30,615 nucleotides of DNA from Myxococcota bacterium. GTDB taxonomy: Bacteria; Myxococcota_A; UBA796; CAJQPC01. The stretch's first letter is position 1, and every line of letters begins with the position of its first letter. Where the stretch lies: positions 1 to 30,615 of the forward strand of contig DASCPX010000018.1 of the NCBI GenBank assembly GCA_036012755.1, written 5' to 3'. Below the pieces are notes generated by a model. It had not been told where the DNA came from. It saw only the letters and a program-made list of their open reading frames with translations, and made no database searches. The translations under genes were made by a program, and so were the position numbers. Below, one piece after another: positions 5,056-22,772 of the stretch.

Positions 5056-5074
5056 AGCCCGGAGCGCAGAGCAC

Positions 5075-6394
5075 ATGGCCATCCTCCTGATCGACGACGA
5101 CGACACCGGGCGGCGGCTGTCCGCCCACAACCTGCGCCGCTGCGGACACGAGGTGAACGAGGCCGCGGACGGGCGAGAAGGCCTGCGGGTCTTCGATCCA
5201 GGTCGCCACGAGGTCGTCGTGACCGACATGCGCATGCCGGTGCTCGACGGCATGGAGGTGCTGCGGCTGGTCCGGGATCGTGCTCCGGACGTGCCGGTGG
5301 TGGTGATCACGGCCTATGGCAGCGTGGACAAGGCCGTCGACGCCATGCAGGCCGGCGCTTGGAGCTTCATCGAGAAGCCCTTCTCCCGGGATCGGCTCGA
5401 GCTGGCCGTCCAGCGCGCCCTCGAAGCGTCCCGGTTGCGCCGCGACAACAAGCAACTGCGCTCGGTCGAGCGGCCGATCATCGCCCGGTCCGAAGCGATG
5501 GCCGAGCTCCTCGCCGTCGTCGATCGCATGGCCGCCAGCGACGCCCCGGTGATGATCTTCGGCGAGAGCGGCACGGGCAAGGAGCTCATGGCGCGCCGGG
5601 TCCACGCCCGAGGACCGCGCGCCTCGGGCCCCTTCGTGCCAGTGAACTGCGCGGCGATCCCGGCGACGCTGCTCGAAGCGGAGCTCTTCGGACACGCCAA
5701 GGGTGCCTTCACAGGGGCCCAGAAGGCCCGCCTCGGTCGCTTCCGCTCGGCGGAGGGTGGCACGCTGTTCCTCGACGAGATCGGCGAGGTGCCGCCAGAG
5801 CTCCAGGCCAAGCTCCTCCGGGTGCTCCAGGAGCGCTCCGTTGACGTGGTAGGCGCGGACCGGGCCGTCGACGTGAACGTGCGCATCGTCGCGGCGACGA
5901 ACCAGGACCTGGAGCAAGGGGTCGCCGACGGGCACTTCCGCGAGGACCTCTACTACCGGCTCAACGTCCTGCGCGTGGACATCCCACCGCTGCGAGAGCG
6001 TCGAGAGGACATCGTGCCCCTCGCCGAGGCCTTCCTCGCGGAGCTGGCCATGCGCGAGCTCGTGCTGGATCGGTCCGCCCGCGACGCCCTGCGCAAGAGG
6101 ACCTGGCGCGGCAACGTGCGCGAGGTGCGCAACCTCTGCGAGCGCCTCTCCGTGCTCGCCCCCGGCCCCGAGGTGAGCGCCGCCGACATCCCGGCCGAGC
6201 GCACGCTGAGCCGCAGCCGCAGCTGGCTGGAGCACCTGCCAGCGGACATCACCCTGACCGAGCTGGAGACCCAGGCCATCGAGCACACGCTGGACCGCTG
6301 CGGCTGGAACGTCAGCGAGGCCGCGCGCCTGCTGGGCGTCGCCCGCCACATCCTGGCCTACCGCATCGAGAAGTTCGGGATCGCGCGGCGATGA
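5075..6394 (+). CDS. Sigma-54-dependent NtrC/ZraR-family response regulator (receiver, AAA+, Fis HTH)
   Basis: Start placed at ATG 5075 (MAILLIDDDD); phosphoacceptor TDMRMP; Walker A GESGTGKE; GAFTGA loop; FLDEIGE; FREDLYYRLNV; HTH NVSEAARLLGV. Confidence 0.95.
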   Translation: MAILLIDDDDTGRRLSAHNLRRCGHEVNEAADGREGLRVFDPGRHEVVVTDMRMPVLDGMEVLRLVRDRAPDVPVVVITAYGSVDKAVDAMQAGAWSFIEKPFSRDRLELAVQRALEASRLRRDNKQLRSVERPIIARSEAMAELLAVVDRMAASDAPVMIFGESGTGKELMARRVHARGPRASGPFVPVNCAAIPATLLEAELFGHAKGAFTGAQKARLGRFRSAEGGTLFLDEIGEVPPELQAKLLRVLQERSVDVVGADRAVDVNVRIVAATNQDLEQGVADGHFREDLYYRLNVLRVDIPPLRERREDIVPLAEAFLAELAMRELVLDRSARDALRKRTWRGNVREVRNLCERLSVLAPGPEVSAADIPAERTLSRSRSWLEHLPADITLTELETQAIEHTLDRCGWNVSEAARLLGVARHILAYRIEKFGIARR

Positions 6395-7416
6395 GGGTCG
6401 CTCGCCTGTTCACGACCCGAGGGCTGCTCCTGGTCTGGGTCCCGATCGCGGCCACCGCGATGCTCCACTACCTCTCTCCGCCAGACGCTCACTGGCTCCA
6501 TGACGTGGCCAGACGGCTCTTCTATGTGCCGGTGCTCCTGGCGGGGGCCCAGGCCGGCGTGCGAGGCGGGCTGCTCGCAGCGGGGGTCGCCGTCGCCGTC
6601 TACGTGCCCCATGCCTTCATCGACCACCTGGGCCACGACCCCGCCAACCACACCGAGAAGCTCCTCGAGATGATCTTCTACGTCGTGATCGGCGGGGTGT
6701 CCGGCTTCCTCGCCGAGCGGGAGCAGGCCCGCCAGGCCGAGCTCTCGTCGAAGGACCATCAGCTGGCGCGGGCCGCTCGGCTGGAGTCCCTCGGCCAGCT
6801 GACAGCGGGCCTGGCCCACGAGATCCGCAACCCGCTGCACGCCATGCGAGGGACCGCCGAGATCCTGCTCGACGCCGTGCCCGACGAGGCCCCCGAGCAC
6901 TCCCTCGGAGAGGCCCACATCGAGGAGATCGATCGCCTTAGCGGAGTGCTCAAGCGGTTCCTGGAGTTCGCGCGGGATCCGGGGGCGCGCTCCACCGGCC
7001 CGGTCGTGCTCGACGCGGTCGTGTTGCGCGTTGCGGACCTCGTGCGCGCCCAGGCCGGGCGGCAAGAGACCCGCCTGGAGCTCAGGACCGAGGGGGCAGA
7101 GGTCCAGGGGGACGCCGAGCAGCTCACCCAGGTCGTGCTCGTGCTGGCGCTCAACGCGCTGCAGTCGGTGACCAAGGGTGGCCGGCTGTCGCTGGTCGCC
7201 GACGGGGGCCGGATCCTGGTCCACAACGACGGCCCGCCCATCGCCGAGCCGGACCTGGAGCGGCTCTTCGACCCCTTCTTCACCACCCGCGCCGACGGCA
7301 CCGGGCTCGGGCTGAGCGTCGCCTGGCGCATCGTAAAGAGCCACGGGGGCACCATCTCCGCCCGCAACACGCCCGACGGGGTCGTCTTCGAGGTCGAGCT
7401 GCCCGCCTCGGCGTGA
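6391..7416 (+). CDS. Membrane sensor histidine kinase with a His-rich multi-TM input domain
   Basis: ATGA overlap with the regulator; H-box LAHEIRNPL, N-box LALNALQS, G1 NDGPPI, F/G2 FDPFFTT..GTGLGL; N-terminal hydrophobic helices with HYL, HWLHD, PHAF, HLGHD. Confidence 0.93.
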   Translation: MRVARLFTTRGLLLVWVPIAATAMLHYLSPPDAHWLHDVARRLFYVPVLLAGAQAGVRGGLLAAGVAVAVYVPHAFIDHLGHDPANHTEKLLEMIFYVVIGGVSGFLAEREQARQAELSSKDHQLARAARLESLGQLTAGLAHEIRNPLHAMRGTAEILLDAVPDEAPEHSLGEAHIEEIDRLSGVLKRFLEFARDPGARSTGPVVLDAVVLRVADLVRAQAGRQETRLELRTEGAEVQGDAEQLTQVVLVLALNALQSVTKGGRLSLVADGGRILVHNDGPPIAEPDLERLFDPFFTTRADGTGLGLSVAWRIVKSHGGTISARNTPDGVVFEVELPASA

Positions 7417-7430
7417 AGCCCCCGCCGGAC

Positions 7431-10400
7431 TCACTCGTCCAGCGCGTCGCGGTCCAGCACCCAGAGTCTCTTCCAGAGGAGGTACAGCGCGGGCAGCACC
7501 ACGAGGGTCAACAGCGTGCTGCTGACGAGCCCTCCCACCATCGGCGCCGCGATGCGCTTCATCACGCGGGTGCCCGTCTCCGTCCCGAACATGATGGGCA
7601 ATAGGCCACACAGCGTGGTCGCGACGGTCATCAGCTTGGGGCGCACCCGATCGACGGCGCCCTCCATGATGGCGGCCCTCAGATCCTCGACGGTGTTCAT
7701 CCGCCCCTCCTCGCGGTACCGCTCGACCGCCTCGTCGAGGTAGACGAGCATCACGACCCCGGTCTCCGCCGCCAGGCCCAAGAGCGCGATGAAGCCGACC
7801 TGGACCGCCACCGAGCTGTTGAAGTCCAGCATCCACAGCAGCCAGATGCCGCCGAGTGGCGCGAAGAAGATCGTGCCGAGCATGACCATGCCGGTCTCGC
7901 CGAAGCGCCGGAAGTGGGCGTAGAGGAAGATGAAGATCAGCGCCAGGGTGAGCGGCAGGACCAGCATGAGGCGCTTGTTGGCGCGCTCCATGTACTCGTA
8001 CTGGCCGGACCACTGGATGCTCACGCCAGGTGGCAGAGGGACCTTGCTGCGCACGAGCTCCCGGGCCTCTTCCACGTAGCCGCCGATGTCGTCGGTGGTC
8101 AGATCGACGTAGATCCAGGCGGTCCGCCGCGCGTTCTCGCTCTTGATGGCGGGGGCGCCCTTCTCGATCGAGATGTCGGCGACCTGCGCCAGGGGAACCG
8201 TGTGTCCCATGGGGGTCGGCACCGCCACCCGCTCGAGGCTGTCGATGTCGTTGCGCAGCTCCCTCGGGAAGCGCACGTTCACCGGGTAGCGCTCGAGCCC
8301 TTCGACGGTCCAGGTGACGTTCATGCCTCCGATGGCGCTCTTCACGATGTCGTTGACGTCCTTGACGTTGAGCCCGTAGCGGGCGGCGTCCTCGCGCCTG
8401 ATGCGGATGTCGATGAAGTTGCCCCCGACGACCCGCTCGGAGAAGACCGAGGCCGTACCGTCGAGGGTCTGGAGCACGGCCTCGATCTGCTGACCGAGCT
8501 CCGAGAGCTCGTCGAGATCGTCCCCGAGCAGCTTCACCCCGACCGGCGTCTTGATGCCCGTCGCCAGCATGTCGATGCGGGTCTTGATGGGCATCGTCCA
8601 GGCGTTGGTCACCCCCGGGAACTGCACCATCCCGTCCAGCTCCCGGCTGATGTCCTCGATGGTCTTGCCTTCGGGCCAGGTCTCCTGGGGCGTGAGCAGG
8701 ATGGTGGTCTCGATCATCGTCAGCGGTGCTGGGTCCGTCGCGGTGTCAGCGCGCCCGATCTTGCCGAGCACGTGCTCCACCTGCGGGTGGGTGGAGATGA
8801 TCTTGTCCGTCTGCTGGAGCAGCTCCCGCGCCTTCGTGATCGACAGCCCCGGCGGGGTCGTCGGCATGTAGAGCAGGTCGCCTTCGTTCAGCGGCGGCAT
8901 GAACTCACTGCCGATCCGGCTTGCGGGCCAGGCGGTGGCCACGACCAGCGCCACTGCCAGGGCGATCACGACCCCCGGCCTCCCCAGCACGAAGTCGATG
9001 ATCGGCCGGTAGATCCCGATGGACAACCGCGAGATCGGGTTGTCCCGCTCCGGCCGGACCTTGCCTCTGACCAGGTAGAACATCAGCGCCGGGATGAGCG
9101 TCACCGCGAGCAGCGCCGAGGCCGCCATCGCGAAGGTCTTGGTCAAGGCCAGCGGCGTGAACAGCCGCCCCTCCTGCTGCTCCAGCGTGAAGACCGGCAG
9201 GAAGGAGACCGTCACCACCAGGAGCGAGAAGAACAGGGCCGGACCGACCTCTCGCGCGGCGGCGATGACCATGCGCTCCTGATCTGCGATCGCCCCCCGT
9301 TCACGGTGTTTGTGGAGGTTCTCCACCATCACGACCGAGGCATCGACCATCACCCCGATGGCGATCGCGATGCCTCCCAGGCTCATGATGTTGGCGTTGA
9401 GACCGATGGCCCGCATCGCGATGAAGGCCAGCAGGATGCCCACCGGTAGCGTCAGGATGGCGACGACGCTGGAGCGGAAGTGCAGCAGGAAGAGGATGCA
9501 GATGAGCGCGACGACGAGCATCTCCTCGCCGAGCTTGACGACCAGGGTCTCGATGGCATCCAGGATGAGCTCGCTGCGGTCGTAGGAGACGTGGACCTCG
9601 ACCCCCTCGGGTAGACCTGGCTCGAGCTCCGAGAGGCGCTGCTTCACCCCCTCGATGGTCTCCAGCGCGTTGTCCCCGAAGCGCATCAGCACGATGCCGG
9701 TGACCACCTCGCCCTCTCCGTTCATCTCGACGAGACCTCGCCGCACGTCTGGACCCAGCTGGACGTGGGCGACCTGCTTCAGGAGCACGGGGACGTGGGA
9801 CTCGCTGGCCATCGCCAGCGGGATCGTCTCGAGGTCCTCGACCGAGCTGATGTAGCCCTGGCCGCGCACCATGTACTCGGTCTCCCCCATCTCGATGAGT
9901 CGCCCGCCGGCGTCCTGGTTGGCCGCCTGGATCGCCACGCGGACCTGCTTCAACGTGACGCCGTAGGCTCGGAGCTTCTCCGGGTCGACCTCGACCTGGT
10001 ACTGGCGGACGAAGCCGCCGACCGAGGCGACCTCTGCCACGCCGGGCTGGCTCATGAGGTCGTAGCGCAGGTACCAGTCCTGGACGCTGCGCAGCTGGGC
10101 CAGGTCGAGACCGCGGAAGTTCGCGGCGCGCAACAGCTCCTCGGGCGAGAGCCCCGCCGTGGCGTCGCGGTCGAAGCCCTTCTGCGCGAAGCGGGCGCCG
10201 TCGGTGCCCAGGAGCGCCTCGAGGTTCGCGTGCTCGGGCAGCTCCGCGGCGCTCACCTCGCCGTCGTGGTCCCCGTCCCAGGCCTCGCGCAGGAGCCGGG
10301 CGCGCGGCGAGAAGTCGGTCAGCGTGTACTCGTAGACCCAGCCCACACCGGTGGCGTCTGGACCGAGCTGGGGCGTGACCCCCTCGGGGAGTCGGCCTTG

Positions 10401-10775
10401 TGCCGCGTTGAGCGACTCCAGGACCCGACTGCGAGCCCAGTAGAGGTCCGTTCCGTCCTCGAAGATGACGTAGACCATCGAGACGCCGAAGAAGCTGTAG
10501 CCACGCACGTCGTCGGCGTAGGGGACGGCCAGCAGCGAGGTCGCCAGGGGGTAGGTCACCTGGTCCTCGACCACCTGCGGCGCCTGGCCCGGATACTCCG
10601 TGTAGACGATGACCTGGACGTCGGAGAGATCCGGGATCGCGTCGACCGGGGTCGACCAGAGCGCCCAGACGCCGCCTGCGCTGGCGAGCAGGGCCAGAAG
10701 CAGCACGAAGAAGCGGTTTCGCACGCTGGCTTCGATCAGGGCGCCGACCAGGCCCCCCTTTTCGGCGGAGCTCAC
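7431..10775 (-). CDS. cusA: CusA/SilA-type heavy-metal efflux RND permease (1114 aa) with an EF-hand-like insertion
   Basis: GTG start 10775 (GTGA overlap, GGAGG RBS); DAIPDLSDVQV, GPDATGVGW, AIGVMVDA, RVRPKLMT; Met triad matching E. coli CusA M573/M623/M672 (LLYMP, PLTMIE, RIDML). Confidence 0.96.
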   Translation of the reverse strand: MSSAEKGGLVGALIEASVRNRFFVLLLALLASAGGVWALWSTPVDAIPDLSDVQVIVYTEYPGQAPQVVEDQVTYPLATSLLAVPYADDVRGYSFFGVSMVYVIFEDGTDLYWARSRVLESLNAAQGRLPEGVTPQLGPDATGVGWVYEYTLTDFSPRARLLREAWDGDHDGEVSAAELPEHANLEALLGTDGARFAQKGFDRDATAGLSPEELLRAANFRGLDLAQLRSVQDWYLRYDLMSQPGVAEVASVGGFVRQYQVEVDPEKLRAYGVTLKQVRVAIQAANQDAGGRLIEMGETEYMVRGQGYISSVEDLETIPLAMASESHVPVLLKQVAHVQLGPDVRRGLVEMNGEGEVVTGIVLMRFGDNALETIEGVKQRLSELEPGLPEGVEVHVSYDRSELILDAIETLVVKLGEEMLVVALICILFLLHFRSSVVAILTLPVGILLAFIAMRAIGLNANIMSLGGIAIAIGVMVDASVVMVENLHKHRERGAIADQERMVIAAAREVGPALFFSLLVVTVSFLPVFTLEQQEGRLFTPLALTKTFAMAASALLAVTLIPALMFYLVRGKVRPERDNPISRLSIGIYRPIIDFVLGRPGVVIALAVALVVATAWPASRIGSEFMPPLNEGDLLYMPTTPPGLSITKARELLQQTDKIISTHPQVEHVLGKIGRADTATDPAPLTMIETTILLTPQETWPEGKTIEDISRELDGMVQFPGVTNAWTMPIKTRIDMLATGIKTPVGVKLLGDDLDELSELGQQIEAVLQTLDGTASVFSERVVGGNFIDIRIRREDAARYGLNVKDVNDIVKSAIGGMNVTWTVEGLERYPVNVRFPRELRNDIDSLERVAVPTPMGHTVPLAQVADISIEKGAPAIKSENARRTAWIYVDLTTDDIGGYVEEARELVRSKVPLPPGVSIQWSGQYEYMERANKRLMLVLPLTLALIFIFLYAHFRRFGETGMVMLGTIFFAPLGGIWLLWMLDFNSSVAVQVGFIALLGLAAETGVVMLVYLDEAVERYREEGRMNTVEDLRAAIMEGAVDRVRPKLMTVATTLCGLLPIMFGTETGTRVMKRIAAPMVGGLVSSTLLTLVVLPALYLLWKRLWVLDRDALDE

Positions 10776-12193
10776 TCGACCTCCTCGAGGAACATCCCGC
10801 AGATGGAACACCGTCCAGGCACGTCTTCGATGACCTCCGGGTGCATCGGGCAGGTGTACTGACCCGGGTGGGGGCCAGTGGCCTCGCGCTCGACGAGGTC
10901 CATGCCGCACTCGGTGCAGCGCCCGGGTTCGTCGTCGATGATCTCTGGGTGCATCGGGCAGCTCCAGACCGTGTCCGAGGCCTCCTCGCGGTCATCCTCT
11001 GGGGAGAGCATCTTGCGCATCGCTTCCTGCAGCTGGCTCTCGCTGTCCAGGAGGAACTGGCCGCTGACCACGATCTCCTCGCCGTCGGCGACGCCGTCGA
11101 GGACCTCGGTCAGGTTGCGATCACCGACGAGTCCGGTCCTGACCTGGCGTGGCTCGAAGTGTCCCTCTCCACGAGCCACGAAGACGATCTCGCGAGTGCC
11201 GGAGTGGAGGATGGCCTCGCTTGGGATCGCCAGGACGTCGTCGAGGCGCCGGTACTCGATGTAGACCGTCGCGAACATGCCGGGCTTGAGCTCCAGCCCG
11301 GTGTTCTCGAACTCCAGGCGTACGGTGAGGGTGCGGCTCTTTTCGTCCAGGGTGGGGTAGATGTAGGCGACCTGGCCCTGCAGCGTCGTGCCCTTGTCGT
11401 AGGTGAGCTCCATCTGGGCTTCCTGGCCGACCTCGACCCAGGGGGCGTCGAACTCGTAGACCTCGGCCGTGACCCAGATCCGCTGGAGGTTGCCGATTCG
11501 GTAGAGGTCCTTGCCCGCGGGCACCCTGGCTCCCTCGATGACGTTCTTGTGCAGGACGAAGCCGGACTGGGGTGCGCGGACCGGCAGGGTCCGCCGGAGC
11601 TCTCCCTCGTCGCGGATGCGATCGAGGTCGCGGCCGGAGATGTCCCAGAGCTCCAGCTTCCTGCGGGCAGAGGCCGCGAGATCGCTGTCCGCTCCCTGGC
11701 TGCGCAGCGCCAACAGGTACTCCTCCTGGGCGGACACCAGCTCGGGCGAGTAGACCTCGAACAGCGCCTGGCCCGCCTTCACGGGGTCGCCGGTGCGGTC
11801 CGCGTAGAGCTTCTCGACCCAGCCGCTGTAGCGCAGGTTGACGACGGAGAGCTCGTCCTCTCCGACCTCCACCTCGCCGATGGTGCGGAGGTGGCGGAAG
11901 ACCGTCTGGCGCCGGGCGATCTCGGTGCGGACACCCATGTTCTGCTGGACGACAGGGTCGATGTGGACGCTGGCGTCCGAGCTGGCCTCGTCGGCGCTCG
12001 GCGTCGACGAGGTGTTCATCGGGGTGAGGTCCATGCCGCAGATCGGGCAGGTGCCTGGCGAGTCCTGGACCACCTGGGGGTGCATGCCGCAGGTGTAGAG
12101 CTGGCCTGCCTCGTGGGCGTGCTCCTCCTCCGTGGAGCAGCCGGCGGCGAAGACGACGAGGAGAGGGATCAACAGGAGCAGGATGCGTGTCAC
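10772..12193 (-). CDS. cusB: CusB-type membrane fusion lipoprotein with three heavy-metal-binding motifs
   Basis: GTG start 12193 overlaps the upstream stop; lipobox FAAGC; YSPELVSAQEEYL, LKPGMF, SGQFLLDSES; YTCGMHP..CPICGMDL, WSCPMHP..CTECGMDL, YTCPMHP..CSICGMFL. Confidence 0.93.
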   Translation of the reverse strand: MTRILLLLIPLLVVFAAGCSTEEEHAHEAGQLYTCGMHPQVVQDSPGTCPICGMDLTPMNTSSTPSADEASSDASVHIDPVVQQNMGVRTEIARRQTVFRHLRTIGEVEVGEDELSVVNLRYSGWVEKLYADRTGDPVKAGQALFEVYSPELVSAQEEYLLALRSQGADSDLAASARRKLELWDISGRDLDRIRDEGELRRTLPVRAPQSGFVLHKNVIEGARVPAGKDLYRIGNLQRIWVTAEVYEFDAPWVEVGQEAQMELTYDKGTTLQGQVAYIYPTLDEKSRTLTVRLEFENTGLELKPGMFATVYIEYRRLDDVLAIPSEAILHSGTREIVFVARGEGHFEPRQVRTGLVGDRNLTEVLDGVADGEEIVVSGQFLLDSESQLQEAMRKMLSPEDDREEASDTVWSCPMHPEIIDDEPGRCTECGMDLVEREATGPHPGQYTCPMHPEVIEDVPGRCSICGMFLEEVE

Positions 12194-13395
12194 GGGTTTG
12201 CTCCTATGAGTGCTCGGGTCTCGGCCCGCTGGATGTGGGTCTCGGCGGCGGCCACGAGCCAGGCCCGCTCCAGCGTGAGCAGGTCGACCTCCGCCTCGTA
12301 CAGGGAGGAGAAGCCCGCCTTGTCGACGCGGAAGTCCGACAGGGTGGTCTCCAGGGTCGCCTCGGCGGCGGGGATGAGCACGGTCTCGTAGGTGTGGGCC
12401 TTGTCCGCTGCCCGGGTCCAGCGAGCGTGGGTGGACGTGAGCGAGGCCTCCAGCTGGTCCAGCGCCGCCTCGTACTGGGCCCGCGCGGCGGAGGCCGCCT
12501 CCAGGTGGCCGCTGGCCATGCCCTCCGCGCGCTTGCGGCTGTTGAAGGGAAGCGGCGCGGACAGACCGACGCTGACGAGGTCCGTTCCCTCGGGCTGTTG
12601 GGTGCGGATGCGGTAGCCACCCCAGACCGTCAGGTCCGGGCGGGCATCGACCAGCGCCAGGTCGGCCGCCAGCTCCTCGTTCTGGGCGACGAGCTGGAGC
12701 CGCCGGAGCTCGGGACGGGCCTCCGCGGCCGAGGCGAGCCAGGCGTCGACGGTCCCCTCGACGGCGACGGGCTCCAACTCCGCGGGTGTCTCGAAGGTGG
12801 CGTCGTCGCGGGCCAGCGCCTTGGCCAGGCCCGCAGAGAGCTCGATGTCCGCGCGCTCGTAGTCTCCGAGGTCGTCCTTCAAGCGTTCGGTGAGGAGTCC
12901 CAGGCGCAGCAGCGCCGACTGGCCGGCGCTGCCCACCTCGTAGCGGGAGCGCACGGCCCCCAGGAGCTCGACCGTGAGGGCGAGGTGCCTCTCGGTGACC
13001 GAGCCGAGGGACCGGCTCAGGGCGAGCCTCCACCAGGTCTGGTCCACCTGCATTCGGAGGAGGAGCTCCGCCTCCAGCGTGGCCTGCTCGCTGATCTCCA
13101 CCTGGCCGGTCGCGACCTCGGCCCGCAGCGCGGTGACCCCGGGCGCCGGCAGGGTCTGCCGGGCCTCGAGCTGCACGCCCGACATCGGGTGGTTGCCCGG
13201 CAGGGGGGCGCTCACCGCCATGTTGGAGTACGCGGCACCGACCATCGGATCCGGCCAGACGTCCGCGACCTCGGCCAGCGCTTCGAGCTGACGGGTGCGC
13301 GCCTGCATCGCCTGCAGGCTCGGGTTTGCAGCCACCGCCTCGTCGGCAAGGCGGTCGGTGTCGTCGGCCATGGCCAGGGACAACAAGAGCAGCAT
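12190..13395 (-). CDS. TolC-family outer membrane efflux protein (CusC equivalent)
   Basis: GGAGG RBS, signal peptide, AVAANPSL, RYEVGSAG, ARPELRR, VSVGLSAPLP; first gene of the coupled operon. Confidence 0.9.
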   Translation of the reverse strand: MLLLLSLAMADDTDRLADEAVAANPSLQAMQARTRQLEALAEVADVWPDPMVGAAYSNMAVSAPLPGNHPMSGVQLEARQTLPAPGVTALRAEVATGQVEISEQATLEAELLLRMQVDQTWWRLALSRSLGSVTERHLALTVELLGAVRSRYEVGSAGQSALLRLGLLTERLKDDLGDYERADIELSAGLAKALARDDATFETPAELEPVAVEGTVDAWLASAAEARPELRRLQLVAQNEELAADLALVDARPDLTVWGGYRIRTQQPEGTDLVSVGLSAPLPFNSRKRAEGMASGHLEAASAARAQYEAALDQLEASLTSTHARWTRAADKAHTYETVLIPAAEATLETTLSDFRVDKAGFSSLYEAEVDLLTLERAWLVAAAETHIQRAETRALIGANP

Positions 13396-13450: not shown

Positions 13451-13466
13451 TGCAGTTGTCGTGCCA
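13451..13466 (-). promoter_or_regulatory. Sigma-54 (-24/-12) promoter of the efflux operon
   Basis: Minus strand reads TGGCACGACAACTGCA, matching TGGCACG-N4-TTGCW with one mismatch and exact GG-N10-GC spacing; 55 bp upstream of the TolC ATG. Confidence 0.85.
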
Positions 13467-13619: not shown

Positions 13620-14102
13620 CTAGGGTCGAGTGGCGAGGACCCTGTCCCAGCTGATGTCCTCGAGGGCCTGATAGCGCACCTCGCCTCCGGGCTCCGAGTG
13701 CAGCACCTGTCCCTCTCCGGTGTAGAGCCCCATGTGCCAGGGCCAGTACTTCGTGTCTCCGTCGATGTGCAGCGGAGCGTCTGGGATCTCGTAGCCGGCC
13801 AGCAGGAAGAACACGACGTCCCCTCGCTCGAATGGGACCTCCTCGCCGCGTGAGATCACCGCGGTCTGTGGTCCGAGCAGGCCACTCGCCACCAGCTCCG
13901 AGGGGTTCACCGAGTAGCTCGCGCGGGGGGTGCCCGTGGCGGCGGAGTAGCTGCGGAAGACGAAGCTCATGCACCCGAGGCCAGGGTTCGCGGCGGTGGC
14001 CTGGCCGTTCCAGGCCCAGGGCGTGCCGAGGTAGCCCTCGGCGTGCTCGATCGCCTGGTCATGGACCTCGCCAGCGAGCGCAGCGGTGAACAACAGCAGC
14101 AT
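13620..14102 (-). CDS. Secreted NlpC/P60 (C40) family peptidase
   Basis: ATG 14102 with signal MLLLFTAALAG; YLGTPWAWNG, catalytic Cys in GLGCMSFV, RGDVVFF, His in HMGLY and VLHS. Confidence 0.85.
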   Translation of the reverse strand: MLLLFTAALAGEVHDQAIEHAEGYLGTPWAWNGQATAANPGLGCMSFVFRSYSAATGTPRASYSVNPSELVASGLLGPQTAVISRGEEVPFERGDVVFFLLAGYEIPDAPLHIDGDTKYWPWHMGLYTGEGQVLHSEPGGEVRYQALEDISWDRVLATRP

Positions 14103-14485: not shown

Positions 14486-15817
14486 ATGAGTTTCTGTGAA
14501 GCCTGCGGGACCAACATCGGGTTCTTTTCCCGAAAGAAGTACCGTGACGGTGCGGGAGAAGTGCACGCCTACTGCAGGCCGTGCTTCCGAAAACTGCCTG
14601 AGCCCGGCACCCCGCTGTACAAGGCGTGTCACGCCATCGACCGGGCCAGAAAGGCCAACGCCACCACCCTGGATCTCTCAGAACATGAGCTGCAGAGCCT
14701 ACCGTCTGACCTCTTCCAGTTCACCCAGCTTAAAGAGCTGAACCTGCAGGGCAACCAACTTGAGGCCCTGCCTGGCGAGATCGGCCAACTCCAGGCCCTG
14801 AAGAGACTGGATCTGTCGCGCAATGATCTCACCGCCCTGCCCGAAGAGCTCTGGCGGCTGAGGGCCCTTGAGGTCCTGAACCTCCAGGGCAATCGACTCG
14901 AGACGATTTCTGAGGACATCGGGCAGCTCCGCGCCCTTCAAAGGCTGGACCTGGAATCCAACCGACTGGAGCGCCTGCCCCGGGAGCTCTGGCAGCTGCA
15001 AGACCTGGACACTCTGGCCCTGGAGCGCAACGCCATCAAGGTCCTGCCTTCGGAGATCGGCCAACTGCAGAAGCTGACGCGCCTATGGGTGGGATATTGT
15101 GGCCTGGAGACGTTGCCGCCAGAGGTCTTCCGACTGCAGGCCCTGGAAGATCTGAGCTTGTCCGGCAACGCCTTGGGGTCTTTGCCGCCAGAGATTGGCC
15201 ATCTGCGGCAACTCAAGCAGTTGTACATAGAGAACTGCGGCCTGGAAACGCTTCCCGCAGAGATCGGCAACCTGCATGCGGTCCAAGAAATGTACCTGGA
15301 AGGCAACGGTCTCCAGTCCCTACCGCCAGAGATTGGCCAGATGAAAGCTCTGATCAATCTGATGCTGGATGATGTCCCCCTCTCCCTGAAGCTGCCGATG
15401 GAACTCTTTCAAATGCAGTCCCTTGAGCGGCTCTCCATCTGGCAAGATCTCCTCGACGCCCAGCCGCGGGAGGTGGCCAAGCGGGTGTGGGAGCGTGATC
15501 TGTGCTGCTTCAACGACCCTTATTCCTCCGAGGTCCCAACCACGCGGCGAGTCCGCGCCAAATACCCTGATGAGGCCCGAGGAAAGGGCATTTCTGGAAA
15601 ATGTTACGTCCGGTTCTGGGTCGACGAGAAGGGGGCGCCCTATGACATCTGGGTGGGCCCTTGTGCCGCGTACTGGCGGGATGAAGTCATGGAGGCCGCC
15701 TCGCAGTGGCGGTTCGAACCCCGGAAGGAGGACGGCCAGTTCATCAAGACCCACTACGGCGTCTCCATGCGCTTCAAAGCGGACGGCGAACCAAAAGACG
15801 ATGCGGCCGATTCATAA
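14486..15817 (+). CDS. Fusion protein: N-terminal Zn ribbon, about 11 leucine-rich repeats, C-terminal TonB-C domain
   Basis: CEAC...CRPC; 23-aa repeats of type LxxLxLxxNxLxxLPxEIGxL; KYPDEARGKGISGKCYVRFWVDEKG...AASQWRFEP...VSMRF. Confidence 0.85.
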   Translation: MSFCEACGTNIGFFSRKKYRDGAGEVHAYCRPCFRKLPEPGTPLYKACHAIDRARKANATTLDLSEHELQSLPSDLFQFTQLKELNLQGNQLEALPGEIGQLQALKRLDLSRNDLTALPEELWRLRALEVLNLQGNRLETISEDIGQLRALQRLDLESNRLERLPRELWQLQDLDTLALERNAIKVLPSEIGQLQKLTRLWVGYCGLETLPPEVFRLQALEDLSLSGNALGSLPPEIGHLRQLKQLYIENCGLETLPAEIGNLHAVQEMYLEGNGLQSLPPEIGQMKALINLMLDDVPLSLKLPMELFQMQSLERLSIWQDLLDAQPREVAKRVWERDLCCFNDPYSSEVPTTRRVRAKYPDEARGKGISGKCYVRFWVDEKGAPYDIWVGPCAAYWRDEVMEAASQWRFEPRKEDGQFIKTHYGVSMRFKADGEPKDDAADS

Positions 15818-19979: not shown

Positions 19980-21196
19980 CCGGCCTTCGCGACGACCTCT
20001 GCGGAGAGCACCTCACGGACGTGCCCGAGGGCCCAGTCCACCTCTTCCTTGGTGATCGTGAGCGGCGGCGCGAAGCGGATGACCTGCTGGTGGGTCTCCT
20101 TGCAGAGCAGACCCCGGTCCATGAGCGCTTCGCAGAATGGCCGCGCCGAGCCGCTGGAGGCCTTGACCTCGACGGCGATGAACAGCCCTCGGCCGCGGAT
20201 CTCGTGGACGTGGGGGCTGTCGATCTTGCGCAGCTCGTGCATGAAGTAGTCGCCCATCGCGGCGCTGGCCTCGACCAGGCGCTCCTCGACGAGGACCTCG
20301 ATGCTGGCCTGACCCACAGCGCAGCCGAGGGGGTTGCCGCCGAAGGTCGAGCCGTGGTCGCCGGGGTTGAAGACGCCCATGACGTCCCAGCTGGCGAGGA
20401 AGGCGCTGACCGGGAAGACACCGCCGCCGAGGGCCTTGCCCACCGTCACGCCGTCGGGACGGATGCCCTCGTGCTCGAAGGCGAAGAGCTTGCCCGTGCG
20501 GCCGAAGCCGGTCTGGATCTCGTCGGCGATGAGCAGCGCGCCGTGCCGATCGCAGAGCGCCCGGGCCGCGGCGAGGTAGCCCGCCGGCGGCACGTTGATG
20601 CCTGCCTCGCCCTGGATCGGCTCCACGAGGAAGGCGACGGTGTTCTCGTTGAAGGCCGCTGCCAGCGCGTCGATGTCACCGAAGGGCACCACCACGAAGC
20701 CAGGGGTGAAGGGGCCGAAGCCCTCCTTGTACTGGTCCTCTGTCGAGAAGCCGACGATGGTGGTCGTGCGGCCGTGGAAGTTGTCGGCGCAGACGATGAT
20801 CTCGGCCTTGCCCTTGGCGACACCCTTCTTCTGGTAGCCCCACTTGCGCGCCGCCTTGATGGCGGTCTCGACCGCCTCCGCGCCCGTGTTCATCGGGAGC
20901 GCCGCCTCGAAGCCCGTGACCTCGCACAGGGTGCCCAGGAACTCACCGAGGCGATCGTTGTGGAAGGCCCGCGAGGTCAGGGTGCAGCGACCGGCCTGGT
21001 CGACGAGCGCCTGGACGATCCTGGGGTGGCGGTGACCCTGGTTCAGCGCGCTGTAGGCCGACAGCATGTCCATGTAGCGCTTGCCTTCGGGGTCGGTGAC
21101 CCAGACGCCCTCTGCATGAGCGATGACGATGGGCAGCGGATGGTAGTTGTGGGCGCCGTACTTCTCGGCGAGCTCGATGGCCTGGTGCGTGCTCAC
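19976..21196 (-). CDS. rocD: Ornithine aminotransferase (class III PLP enzyme)
   Basis: YGAHNYHPLP, LSAYSALNQGHRHP, LTSRAF, MNTGAEAVETA, EPIQGEAG, DEIQTG, GKALGGG, HGSTFGGNPL. Confidence 0.96.
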   Translation of the reverse strand: MSTHQAIELAEKYGAHNYHPLPIVIAHAEGVWVTDPEGKRYMDMLSAYSALNQGHRHPRIVQALVDQAGRCTLTSRAFHNDRLGEFLGTLCEVTGFEAALPMNTGAEAVETAIKAARKWGYQKKGVAKGKAEIIVCADNFHGRTTTIVGFSTEDQYKEGFGPFTPGFVVVPFGDIDALAAAFNENTVAFLVEPIQGEAGINVPPAGYLAAARALCDRHGALLIADEIQTGFGRTGKLFAFEHEGIRPDGVTVGKALGGGVFPVSAFLASWDVMGVFNPGDHGSTFGGNPLGCAVGQASIEVLVEERLVEASAAMGDYFMHELRKIDSPHVHEIRGRGLFIAVEVKASSGSARPFCEALMDRGLLCKETHQQVIRFAPPLTITKEEVDWALGHVREVLSAEVVAKAG

Positions 21197-21260
21197 GCGG
21201 GCTCCGGGGAGGGAGGTTGGAGGCAGCCGGAGCCTAACCGGGAGCGGCTACGATGGCGCG

Positions 21261-22772
21261 GTGCTTTGGATGCTGTTCAGCACAGCCCTCGGAGATGACG
21301 ATCCATGGGGGCTGGTCCGCGTGGAAGACCCCGATCACCCCGACGCGATCGCGCGCTCCCACAGGGGCTCGATACTGCTCGAGCCGCCCACCGATGGCAC
21401 CGAGTGGTTCGTCGAAGAGGTCCCCCACGTCGACGAAGGGGTCGGGTCCCAGCGCGCGGACGGGGCCTCGGAAGCCCTCGGCGTAGACGCCTGGCACGAT
21501 GCCGGCTTCCTCGGTCAGGGTGTCTCCATCGCGGTCTTCGACCTGCAGTGGTACGGCACCGAACTGGACCACGAGGAGCTCGGCGACTTCGAGTCCTGGG
21601 ACTGCTGGGCCCACACGGCGTGCACCCCCGAGATCGACACCCTGCGGCCACGCTTCACCTACGAGGGAGGGGTCCACGGCCTGGCCTGCGCAGAAGTCGT
21701 CCGCGACCTCGCCCCCGAAGCCGAGCTCCACCTCGTGCGGACCAACGGGACCGTCGCCTTCGAGAACGCCGTGGCCTGGGCCGTGCGCGAGGAGATCGAC
21801 GTCGTCACCCTGTCGATGTCCTACATGAACAGCAGCTTCTACGACGGCAGCGGCCCGCTCGCGGTGCTCGTCGAGGACATCAGCGAGGGCGGCACGCTCC
21901 TGGTGACCTCGGCCGGGAACTACGCCCAGGGCCACTGGAGCGGTCCCTTCGTCGACACCGACGGCGACGGGCTCCACGAGTTCGAGGACGGCAGCGAGCG
22001 GCTCGGGGTCTACTTCCACGCGGGCAAGAAGCGAGGCCTCGCCCTCCAGTGGGACAACTACTACCGCTGCGGGGACACGGACCTGGACGTCGTCGTCTAC
22101 AGCGAGGACGGCACGGTGCTCGACGTCGGGGACCGGGTGCAGGACGGCGAGAAGGGCTGCTCCCCGGTGGAGCGCCTCGCGCCTACCCTGTCAGAGGACC
22201 AGTGGGCAGAGGTCGAGATCCGGCGCGTCGCCGGAGACCCCGCGGTGATGATGAACCTCTTGACCTCGAGCGGGCGCATCGAGGGCAGCCACGCCGACCG
22301 CAGCGTCACCGATCCGGGCACACATCCGCTGGCGTGGACCATCGGCGCCATGGACCAGGACGGGTACCTGTCGAACTCGATCGAGGGCTTCTCCTCTCAG
22401 GGGCCCAACATGGCCGGCGATCCGAAGCCGGACATCGTGGCCACCGACGGCGTCACCAGCTCCGCATATGGCCCCCGCGGCTTCTACGGGACCTCCGCCG
22501 CCTCTCCCAGCGCTGCTGGGGCGCTCGCGGTGGTGATGTCCCGGGACCCCTCCCTGACGGGCCGAGAGGCTTCCCAGCTCATCGAGGGCTGGGCTGTGTC
22601 CGAGCGCACCAGCTGGCAGGAGGTGGACAACACTATGGGGGCCGGACGCCTACGCCTGCCGCCACCGGAGGCCTCTCTCCCGGGCTGTCTCGGGCGCGCC
22701 GGTTGGCTGGCGCTCGGGATCGGCTTACCCTTGCCGCTACTGAGACGAAGACGACGAAGCCCACCTTGCTGA
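21261..22772 (+). CDS. Secreted S8 subtilisin-like peptidase with a C-terminal sorting/TM tail
   Basis: Start GTG 21261 or ATG 21270; triad IAVFD, HGLAC, GTSAASP; oxyanion SAGN; KPDIVA; tail GC-hydrophobic-RRRRR. Confidence 0.9.
   Translation: MLWMLFSTALGDDDPWGLVRVEDPDHPDAIARSHRGSILLEPPTDGTEWFVEEVPHVDEGVGSQRADGASEALGVDAWHDAGFLGQGVSIAVFDLQWYGTELDHEELGDFESWDCWAHTACTPEIDTLRPRFTYEGGVHGLACAEVVRDLAPEAELHLVRTNGTVAFENAVAWAVREEIDVVTLSMSYMNSSFYDGSGPLAVLVEDISEGGTLLVTSAGNYAQGHWSGPFVDTDGDGLHEFEDGSERLGVYFHAGKKRGLALQWDNYYRCGDTDLDVVVYSEDGTVLDVGDRVQDGEKGCSPVERLAPTLSEDQWAEVEIRRVAGDPAVMMNLLTSSGRIEGSHADRSVTDPGTHPLAWTIGAMDQDGYLSNSIEGFSSQGPNMAGDPKPDIVATDGVTSSAYGPRGFYGTSAASPSAAGALAVVMSRDPSLTGREASQLIEGWAVSERTSWQEVDNTMGAGRLRLPPPEASLPGCLGRAGWLALGIGLPLPLLRRRRRSPPC

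Follow-up and report, generated by a model that had tools for sequence, protein, structure and literature searches.

The closest described relatives of the system reported here are (i) CusA of Escherichia coli, the permease of the CusCFBA system (PDB 3T51, 3NE5, and 3K07), for which the parts of PMC8092243 drawn on here assign the roles of a Cu(I)/Ag(I) site and a proton relay and describe K984 as essential; (ii) the canonical paired EF-hands of the calmodulin family (PF00036 and PF13499); and (iii) the Ca-binding insertion of a Thermococcus subtilisin. According to the sections of PMC3123361 consulted, EF-hand ligands occupy loop positions 1, 3, 5, 9, and 12 with a hydrophobic residue at position 8, the subtilisin needs its insertion for folding, and Ca2+ loops of this kind are biased to periplasmic or surface sites. 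Here, we analyzed a stretch of 30,615 nucleotides from a Myxococcota bacterium (assembly GCA_036012755.1, contig DASCPX010000018.1; the whole stretch is referred to as the window), in which the last gene of a cusC-cusB-cusA operon encodes P0001, a heavy metal efflux (HME) permease belonging to the RND (resistance-nodulation-division) family that carries an EF-hand-like module in the porter subdomain PN2. This module-bearing CusA is a real, conserved, and apparently undescribed variant of a known pump, and its module may serve as a Ca2+-holding structural appendage. The gene and the parts of the module are as follows, in window coordinates.

7431..10775, minus strand: cusA-type HME-RND permease (P0001), whose probable GTG start overlaps the cusB stop; TIGR00914, best solved relative E. 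coli CusA
10107..10313, minus strand: EF-hand-like module, 69 residues (F154-L222), replacing the 5-residue loop that starts PN2 (from structure and family alignment)
10278..10310, minus strand: helix predicted to lead into loop 1, residues 155-165 (AlphaFold secondary structure)
10242..10277, minus strand: EF loop 1, residues 166-177, canonical D-x-D-x-D-G-x-V-S-x-x-E, followed by Leu-Pro and without an exit helix
10173..10223, minus strand: helix predicted to lead into loop 2, residues 184-200, whose last residue is an invariant Phe
10137..10172, minus strand: EF loop 2, residues 201-212, with D1, D3, L8, S9, and E12 kept and with Thr5 and Ala6
10110..10145, minus strand: helix predicted to leave loop 2 (residues 210-217), together with A-A-N-F-x-G, the conserved stretch that returns into PN2

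Among solved structures, E. coli CusA was the top phmmer match of P0001 (1,113 amino acids, translated from window positions 7434-10772 on the minus strand). Residues 11-155 and 223-1100 of P0001 were aligned to residues 11-155 and 159-1046 of the E. coli chain, with a single break at which P0001 has 69 residues (window 10313-10107) and E. coli CusA has 5. An earlier note on this DNA, made from the sequence alone, had described just such a difference (69 residues against about 5) and had placed two 12-residue loops at 10277-10242 and 10172-10137, coordinates that proved exact. It had also called loop 1 canonical and loop 2 degenerate, with which we agree: loop 1 was found to match the ligand pattern in full, while loop 2 breaks it at position 5 and ranks among the more degenerate of its family. 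A chance Asp-rich loop was ruled out by the purifying selection on ligand codons reported below and by 200,000 shuffles of the 77-residue stretch, of which 4 produced one strict EF loop and none produced two loops of a looser pattern. An assembly artefact was rejected on the strength of homologues with the insert and of contigs from other public sequencing runs: run X6, which is possibly the source of the window DNA, spans the whole 1.5-kb stretch unbroken, X7 includes positions 10063-10285, and the junction at 10313 is present in both X8 and X11, in each case with no differences. The 12 runs holding at least a fifth of the operon's words were labeled marine, seawater, or hydrothermal vent metagenomes, and no RNA data set was listed among the runs holding operon words.

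Conservation was assessed with an insert-blind search based on P0001 residues 230-730, in which 87 of the 120 closest clusters listed had the insert, 24 had an ordinary short loop, and 9 were unscorable. Carriers were pooled from all sources to 122 distinct proteins, after rows missing either anchor motif or having fewer than 100 residues before the site were dropped. Loop 1 was found to retain D1 (120 carriers), D/N3 (122), S/D/N5 (122), G6 (80), V/L/I8 (121), and E12 (122); loop 2 retains D1 (122), D/N3 (121), D5 (102), G6 (19), I/L/V8 (120), S9 (114), and E12 (122). A stricter ligand pattern was matched by loop 1 in 114 and by loop 2 in 101 of the carriers, and the pattern was unchanged when only the 87 carriers from the insert-blind search or 46 representatives below 85% core identity were considered. 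Wide variation was seen at positions 2, 7, 10, and 11 of loop 1 and at positions 6, 10, and 11 of loop 2; an exception to the variability between ligands is Arg in loop 2, present at position 2 in 101 and at position 7 in 85 carriers. The insert is a family trait, characteristic of a clade that numbers over 100 CusA clusters, and not a peculiarity of P0001. The residue preceding loop 2 is Phe in every carrier and a Pro occupies position 14 of loop 1 in 120. An aromatic residue before each loop, as claimed earlier, is present in P0001 (W165 and F200); however, the residue before loop 1 is Leu in 109 of the 122 and the aromatic is a trait of the subclade of P0001.

The linker between the loops ranges from 16 to 134 residues, which indicates that insertions and deletions are frequent, yet both loops are retained, in carriers that are 67-86% identical. 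The ratio of nonsynonymous to synonymous differences per site (pN/pS) was taken from 11 disjoint pairs of 27 coding sequences; it is uncorrected, and GC bias compresses its pS term. It stood at 0.17 across the 110 ligand codons, 0.71 across the 154 remaining loop codons, and 0.68 across the 476 codons of the linker, against 0.29 in the remaining insert and 0.26 in the pump core. The EF ligand codons are therefore under purifying selection, tighter than that on the pump core, and the Asp and Glu ligands, on whose conservation the earlier reading depended, are kept among the homologues. Since both loops are under selection at their ligand positions while the linker changes freely, we regard Ca2+ binding by the module as very probable. 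Three further observations concern the inserts themselves. The position-5 ligand of loop 2 is lost in 16 of the 122, P0001 included, and Gly7 is found in all 16; this combination recurs in several separate branches of the tree as an alternative loop shape. In 35 inserts (e.g., P0008 and L057) an extra linker segment carries two Cys eight residues apart, which likely form a periplasmic disulfide hairpin. Net charge is negative in 121 of the 122, with a median of -10.

Profile searches relate the module to EF-hands. All 19 inserts of alignment A1 match EF-hand_1 at E ≤ 1, and the best EF-hand_7 match is at 9.5e-11; the insert profile matches calmodulin at E of about 5e-5. Five of seven full-length homologues pass the single-motif EF-hand cut-off (these five were picked for a recorded hit), and none of the seven passes with the EF-hand_7 pair model. 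An EF-hand family is on record for 7 of the 120 closest listed proteins, so automatic annotation does reveal this architecture. The 120 matches listed for the insert profile comprised 107 RND family proteins, one CusA fragment, and 12 EF-hand proteins, with 40 new RND matches among them at 58-73% identity to P0001; in a further search with this profile, the rows checked were only pieces of CusA or multi-EF-hand proteins. Among the insert-profile matches, neither a donor of the insert nor another RND subfamily with the module was found, those covering the full profile being CusA and the rest multi-EF-hand proteins. Two features of the canonical pair are absent: Gly6 is missing from loop 2 in most carriers (Ala in P0001), and helices stand on both sides of loop 2 and on one side of loop 1. 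As the loops fit a pair and these two defining features fail, we term the module EF-hand-like. A lanmodulin type, marked by Pro at loop position 2, was rejected, since P0001 has Gly and Arg at this position and Pro occurs there in at most 10 (loop 1) and at most 1 (loop 2) of the 122.

The insert was predicted by AlphaFold2 to be ordered, with a predicted local distance difference test score (pLDDT) of 80-89 within the full protein and 85.4 alone; disorder, one of the outcomes the earlier note had named as fatal to its reading, was thus not seen. The predicted order of elements is a helix (155-165), loop 1, three helical residues, a helix (184-200), loop 2, and a helix (210-217). Helix-like flanks, as claimed before, accordingly hold for both sides of loop 2 and for the entry of loop 1, and fail at the exit of loop 1, where Pro14 removes the helix. 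The site of insertion lies after the first PN2 strand, which by fold topology heads toward the DN subdomain. In E. coli CusA, R147 and D155 are presumably CusB contacts; R147 falls in the loop that is replaced, and D155 aligns to Q226 of P0001. From PN2 topology and the CusBA contacts, we infer that the module sits atop PN2 beside CusB. The portions of PMC4338810 consulted describe contact between CusB and the top of PN2 for the E. coli proteins.

In our judgment there is about an even chance that the module forms a structural appendage, constitutively loaded with Ca2+ and placed atop PN2 close to the CusB dock, rather than a switch. Periplasmic Ca2+ follows the medium and in seawater is millimolar, high, and steady; in a marine periplasm, the sites would thus be constantly filled. 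Grafted into PN2, the two-loop module would hold Ca2+ at all times and, so loaded, would form a rigid, acidic brace for the top of PN2 and its CusB contact, with a benefit in folding, in resistance to proteases, or in docking of the adaptor. The path of copper would remain the ordinary Met route, bypassing the module. A structural role is favored because extracytoplasmic Ca2+ loops are often structural, and the Thermococcus subtilisin insertion offers the best analogy. Alternatively, the module may be a Ca2+ sensor, one or both loops filling and emptying with outside Ca2+ and tuning PN2 motion or CusB engagement, and hence the rate of efflux. The rarity of Gly6 and the recurrent loss of the position-5 ligand in loop 2 could lower affinity toward the millimolar range, the module is placed on the subdomain that touches CusB, and there is a precedent in EfhP (PMC4053335), a bacterial protein with an EF-hand that reportedly mediates responses to Ca2+. 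However, Pro14 makes an opening of the calmodulin type unavailable to loop 1, the holders of the window DNA are marine and seawater Ca2+ is high and steady, and a close relative, P0053 (see below), lacks the module; we consider a sensor unlikely. Doubtful to the same degree is its fuller form, a clade of what would be the first calcium-gated RND pumps, in which a grafted EF-hand pair at the adaptor interface would tie Cu(I)/Ag(I) export to the levels of Ca2+ (or lanthanide) outside and loop 2, with its low affinity, would be the site of sensing. Thus, of the two roles put forward in the earlier note, that Ca2+ or another cation could regulate or stabilize the pump, stabilization is favored over regulation by the periplasmic site, the marine holders of the DNA, the missing exit helix of loop 1, and the insert-free close relative.

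The distribution of the module was found to be patchy. The 43 related loci are all from metagenome-assembled genomes, labeled Myxococcota/Myxococcales (11), Deltaproteobacteria (9), Enterobacterales/Enterobacteriaceae (8), Proteobacteria (5), Gemmatimonadota (3), and others (7); carriers appear to be centered in Myxococcota, and no cultured carrier turned up among the relatives. With the insert profile, matches were obtained in 32 of the 401 genomes sampled from the phylum of the window, its own genome counted, a lower bound in that G012 carries the insert and was missed. Insert-free trees implied 3 changes (151 rows, FastTree) or 4 changes (54 rows, IQ-TREE quick), at least 2 of which are forced by well-supported branches. 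P0053, which has no insert, is sister to three carriers with a support of 99 and is nearest to carriers in 15 of 15 segments along its length, by a narrow distance or tied in several. In an approximately unbiased (AU) test (quick tree, LG+G4, 54 of the 151 rows, with the group chosen after an earlier tree), carriers alone as a single clade were rejected (p 0.015), and carriers together with P0053 as one clade were not (p-AU 0.36). The simplest reading of these sequences would be one gain and at least one loss, with spread by recombination possible. Two inserts depart from the common form: in L087 (G231:C320:3000-4600), one of the 13 fetched, loop 1 is deleted and loop 2 is intact, and P0080 has an internally duplicated module of 188 residues (about 143-330), in which three EF loops are clear and a fourth is degenerate.

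This history bears on another explanation, that a single event brought an EF-hand fragment into a surface loop that is permissive, where it is tolerated as a passenger of no benefit, its ligands being kept only since an unfolded insert would harm the pump. The insert-free relatives lying inside the clade or next to it (24 among the 120 closest clusters, and P0053), the rejection of carriers alone as a single clade, the near-neutral linker, the single duplication and single loop loss, and the scattered occurrence in the phylum sample would all be expected of a passenger; yet both loops persist through common linker deletions and the ligand codons are held more tightly than the pump core, and we find this explanation quite unlikely.

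Several results weigh against a Ca2+-loaded structural appendage. The best Pfam EF-hand score of the P0001 insert is 15.7 bits, below the cut-off of 25, and no EF-hand family was called on P0001 in a Pfam domain scan of the window proteins; the EF-hand profile scan suggested earlier thus fell short for P0001 itself and succeeded for the five picked homologues at the single-motif cut-off. With the insert model, Foldseek gave no significant match (best E 0.17, template modeling score ≤ 0.34), and in the VIA comparison the best Z of 5.2, with a root-mean-square deviation of 3.0 over 71 residues, was within background. The Foldseek rows listed were mostly EF-hand proteins, and a search of ESM Atlas gave no usable match. 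These null fold searches leave the paired EF-hand geometry unconfirmed and imply neither a new nor a different fold. In the full AlphaFold2 model, PN1 has a pLDDT below 50, which makes the placement of the module beside CusB tentative. One observation in favor of the appendage is itself qualified: Glu9 of loop 1 is found only alongside Ser5 (47 of 60 carriers with Ser5, 0 of 54 with Asp5), and unrelated EF-hand proteins lean in the same direction (18/125 versus 16/798; 1,055 loops, 140 hits), but in a phylogenetic test of this covariation, only 2 independent pairs lay on well-supported branches, and the result was not significant. Finally, P0053 is closest to the carriers and has no module, and L087 has no loop 1, so that any structural benefit of the module is not essential. 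The sub-threshold score and the absence of a significant fold match would also suit a loop pattern that is a relic or a charged turn and binds no metal. Against this, conservation tracks ligand positions 1, 3, 5, 9, and 12 and the hydrophobic position 8, not the residues between, and five homologues pass Pfam EF-hand cut-offs, which makes a metal-free module hardly credible. The EF-hand-like, cation-binding reading of the earlier note is therefore partly supported: two of the three outcomes that would have refuted it, a disordered insert and unconserved ligands, were not seen.

The host pump is of the CusA type, with a TIGR00914 score of 1169.8 bits against a curated cut-off of 701.45. It is encoded last in the gene order cusC-cusB-cusA, all on the minus strand, and among the 43 related loci, some of which are short, cusB was present in 41 and cusC in 38. 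The remaining features of the operon and its metal site are the following.

10772..12193, minus strand: cusB-type adaptor, HlyD_D23 and three HMBD (PF19335)
12190..13395, minus strand: cusC-type outer-membrane factor, PF02321
8568..8867, minus strand: equivalents of the Cu(I)/Ag(I) site residues, M636 (8867), M686 (8717), E688 (8711), and M735 (8570), from alignment A2

The Met triad of the Cu(I) site, said earlier to be intact, is indeed so: M636, M686, and M735 correspond to M573, M623, and M672 of E. coli CusA, E688 corresponds to E625, and these residues are invariant in all 52 rows of alignment A2, which points to a Cu(I)/Ag(I) substrate. The proton relay (D405, E939, and K984) is kept as D477, E1003, and K1046, as are the equivalents of T987, of M391, M403, M410, M486, M501, and M1009, and of R83, E567, D617, R669, and K678. 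Across A2, the equivalents of D405, E567, D617, R669, and K678 are present in 52 of 52 rows, and those of E939 and T987 in all 50 rows long enough to cover them. At the periplasmic Met pair M271-M755, which was not taken as defining for the CusA/SilA family, P0001 has V343 and N818; M817 adjoins the latter, and a Met one residue before the M755 position occurs in 49 of 52 rows. From this sequence evidence, P0001 is predicted to export Cu(I)/Ag(I). A Cu(I) site inside the insert was rejected as unlikely, as no Met, Cys, or His is conserved in the inserts of the 122 carriers and the insert of P0001 is devoid of Met and Cys.

Two observations were made on permeases at large. Ile, Leu, or Met stands in for the K984 equivalent in 29 of the 87 carriers that were scored, all of one subclade that includes P0008 and P0011, compared with 1 of 22 insert-free CusA. 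A second HME-type permease of the same genome (G000:C70, loci L002 and L009; 35-41% identity) has a short loop at the site, without an insert.

An acidic module near the pump entrance might also act as a metal antenna or buffer, gathering lanthanides, Cd2+, or Pb2+ or widening the substrate range. The prevailing negative charge would be suited to this role, EF loops can bind such ions, and the replaced K984 hints at functional drift in one subclade. The invariant triad and E625 equivalent nevertheless indicate Cu(I)/Ag(I), Pro2 is not among the seven commonest residues at that position of either loop, and millimolar Ca2+ would compete for the sites; an antenna strikes us as highly unlikely.

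Elsewhere in the window, a sensor kinase with DUF4118 (6391-7416, plus strand) and a sigma-54 activator (about 5070-6394, plus strand) converge on cusA; kinase-like and activator-like genes accompany 13 and 14 of the 43 related loci, respectively. A sigma-54-like -24/-12 box with one mismatch is found at 13451-13466 (minus strand), 55 bases upstream of cusC. Matches to this box number 4 in the window against 8.4 expected, so only the position of the one upstream of cusC is suggestive. The CusB of the operon has one HMBD at its N terminus and two at its C terminus; no cusF was recognized within the window, and the HMBD domains may replace the CusF chaperone. Also encoded are an NlpC/P60 protein upstream of the operon (13620-14100, minus strand), a leucine-rich-repeat protein fused to a TonB C-terminal domain (14486-15817, plus strand), around which G+C content is lower (60% versus about 69%), and a subtilase-family protein (21147-22772, plus strand).

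The earlier note knew of no RND metal pump with an EF-hand module, and in the literature searched, which did not cover subscription journals and supplements, no description of an RND pump with an EF-hand was found. EF-hands, insertions, and calcium are not mentioned in the parts of a 2024 HME pump phylogeny (PMC10872679) that were available, nor is RND in those of a review of bacterial Ca2+ proteins (PMC10574481). Although the porter domains of RND pumps count among the transporter folds that have been studied best, no published example bearing a module that binds Ca2+ came to light in that literature. A natural experiment is offered by the clade, with near-identical pumps that have the module, lack it (P0053), have lost loop 1 (L087), or have it duplicated (P0080). 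If structural, the module would show a periplasmic machine recruiting Ca2+ for stability and would mark a permissive PN2 site taking up to about 175 extra residues, which could be put to use when metal pumps are tagged or engineered. A regulatory module would instead represent the first case of an RND pump under direct control by an ion and would link bacterial Ca2+ and copper handling.

When compared with known systems, P0001 shares with E. coli CusA (PMC8092243, in the parts used) an HME-RND permease architecture, a cusC-cusB-cusA operon, and the same metal-site and relay residues; it differs in a PN2 that is longer by 64 residues and contains two EF loops, and in having Val for M271 and Asn for M755 with Met one residue earlier. 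Its operon differs from the E. coli Cus system in a CusB with three HMBD, in having no recognized cusF, and in a kinase and sigma-54 activator in place of CusRS. With canonical paired EF-hands, the module has in common two 12-residue loops with D/N/S at positions 1, 3, and 5, a hydrophobic residue at 8, Glu12, and a helix before each loop; counter to these, it has no exit helix after loop 1, a loop 2 mostly without Gly6, and a linker of 16-134 residues, and it lies in the periplasm as part of a transporter. The Pseudomonas aeruginosa protein EfhP (PA4107), likened here only by its description (PMC4053335), shares an EF-hand and a link to Ca2+ but is a stand-alone protein and not fused to a pump. 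No transporter context for Dx[DN]xDG loops was found in the sections of PMC3123361 at hand. The Thermococcus subtilisin insertion described there, which is built on such loops, resembles the module in being lineage-restricted and extracytoplasmic, with relatives of the host that lack the insert; the module differs in that its two loops are each led by a helix and its host is an RND transporter.

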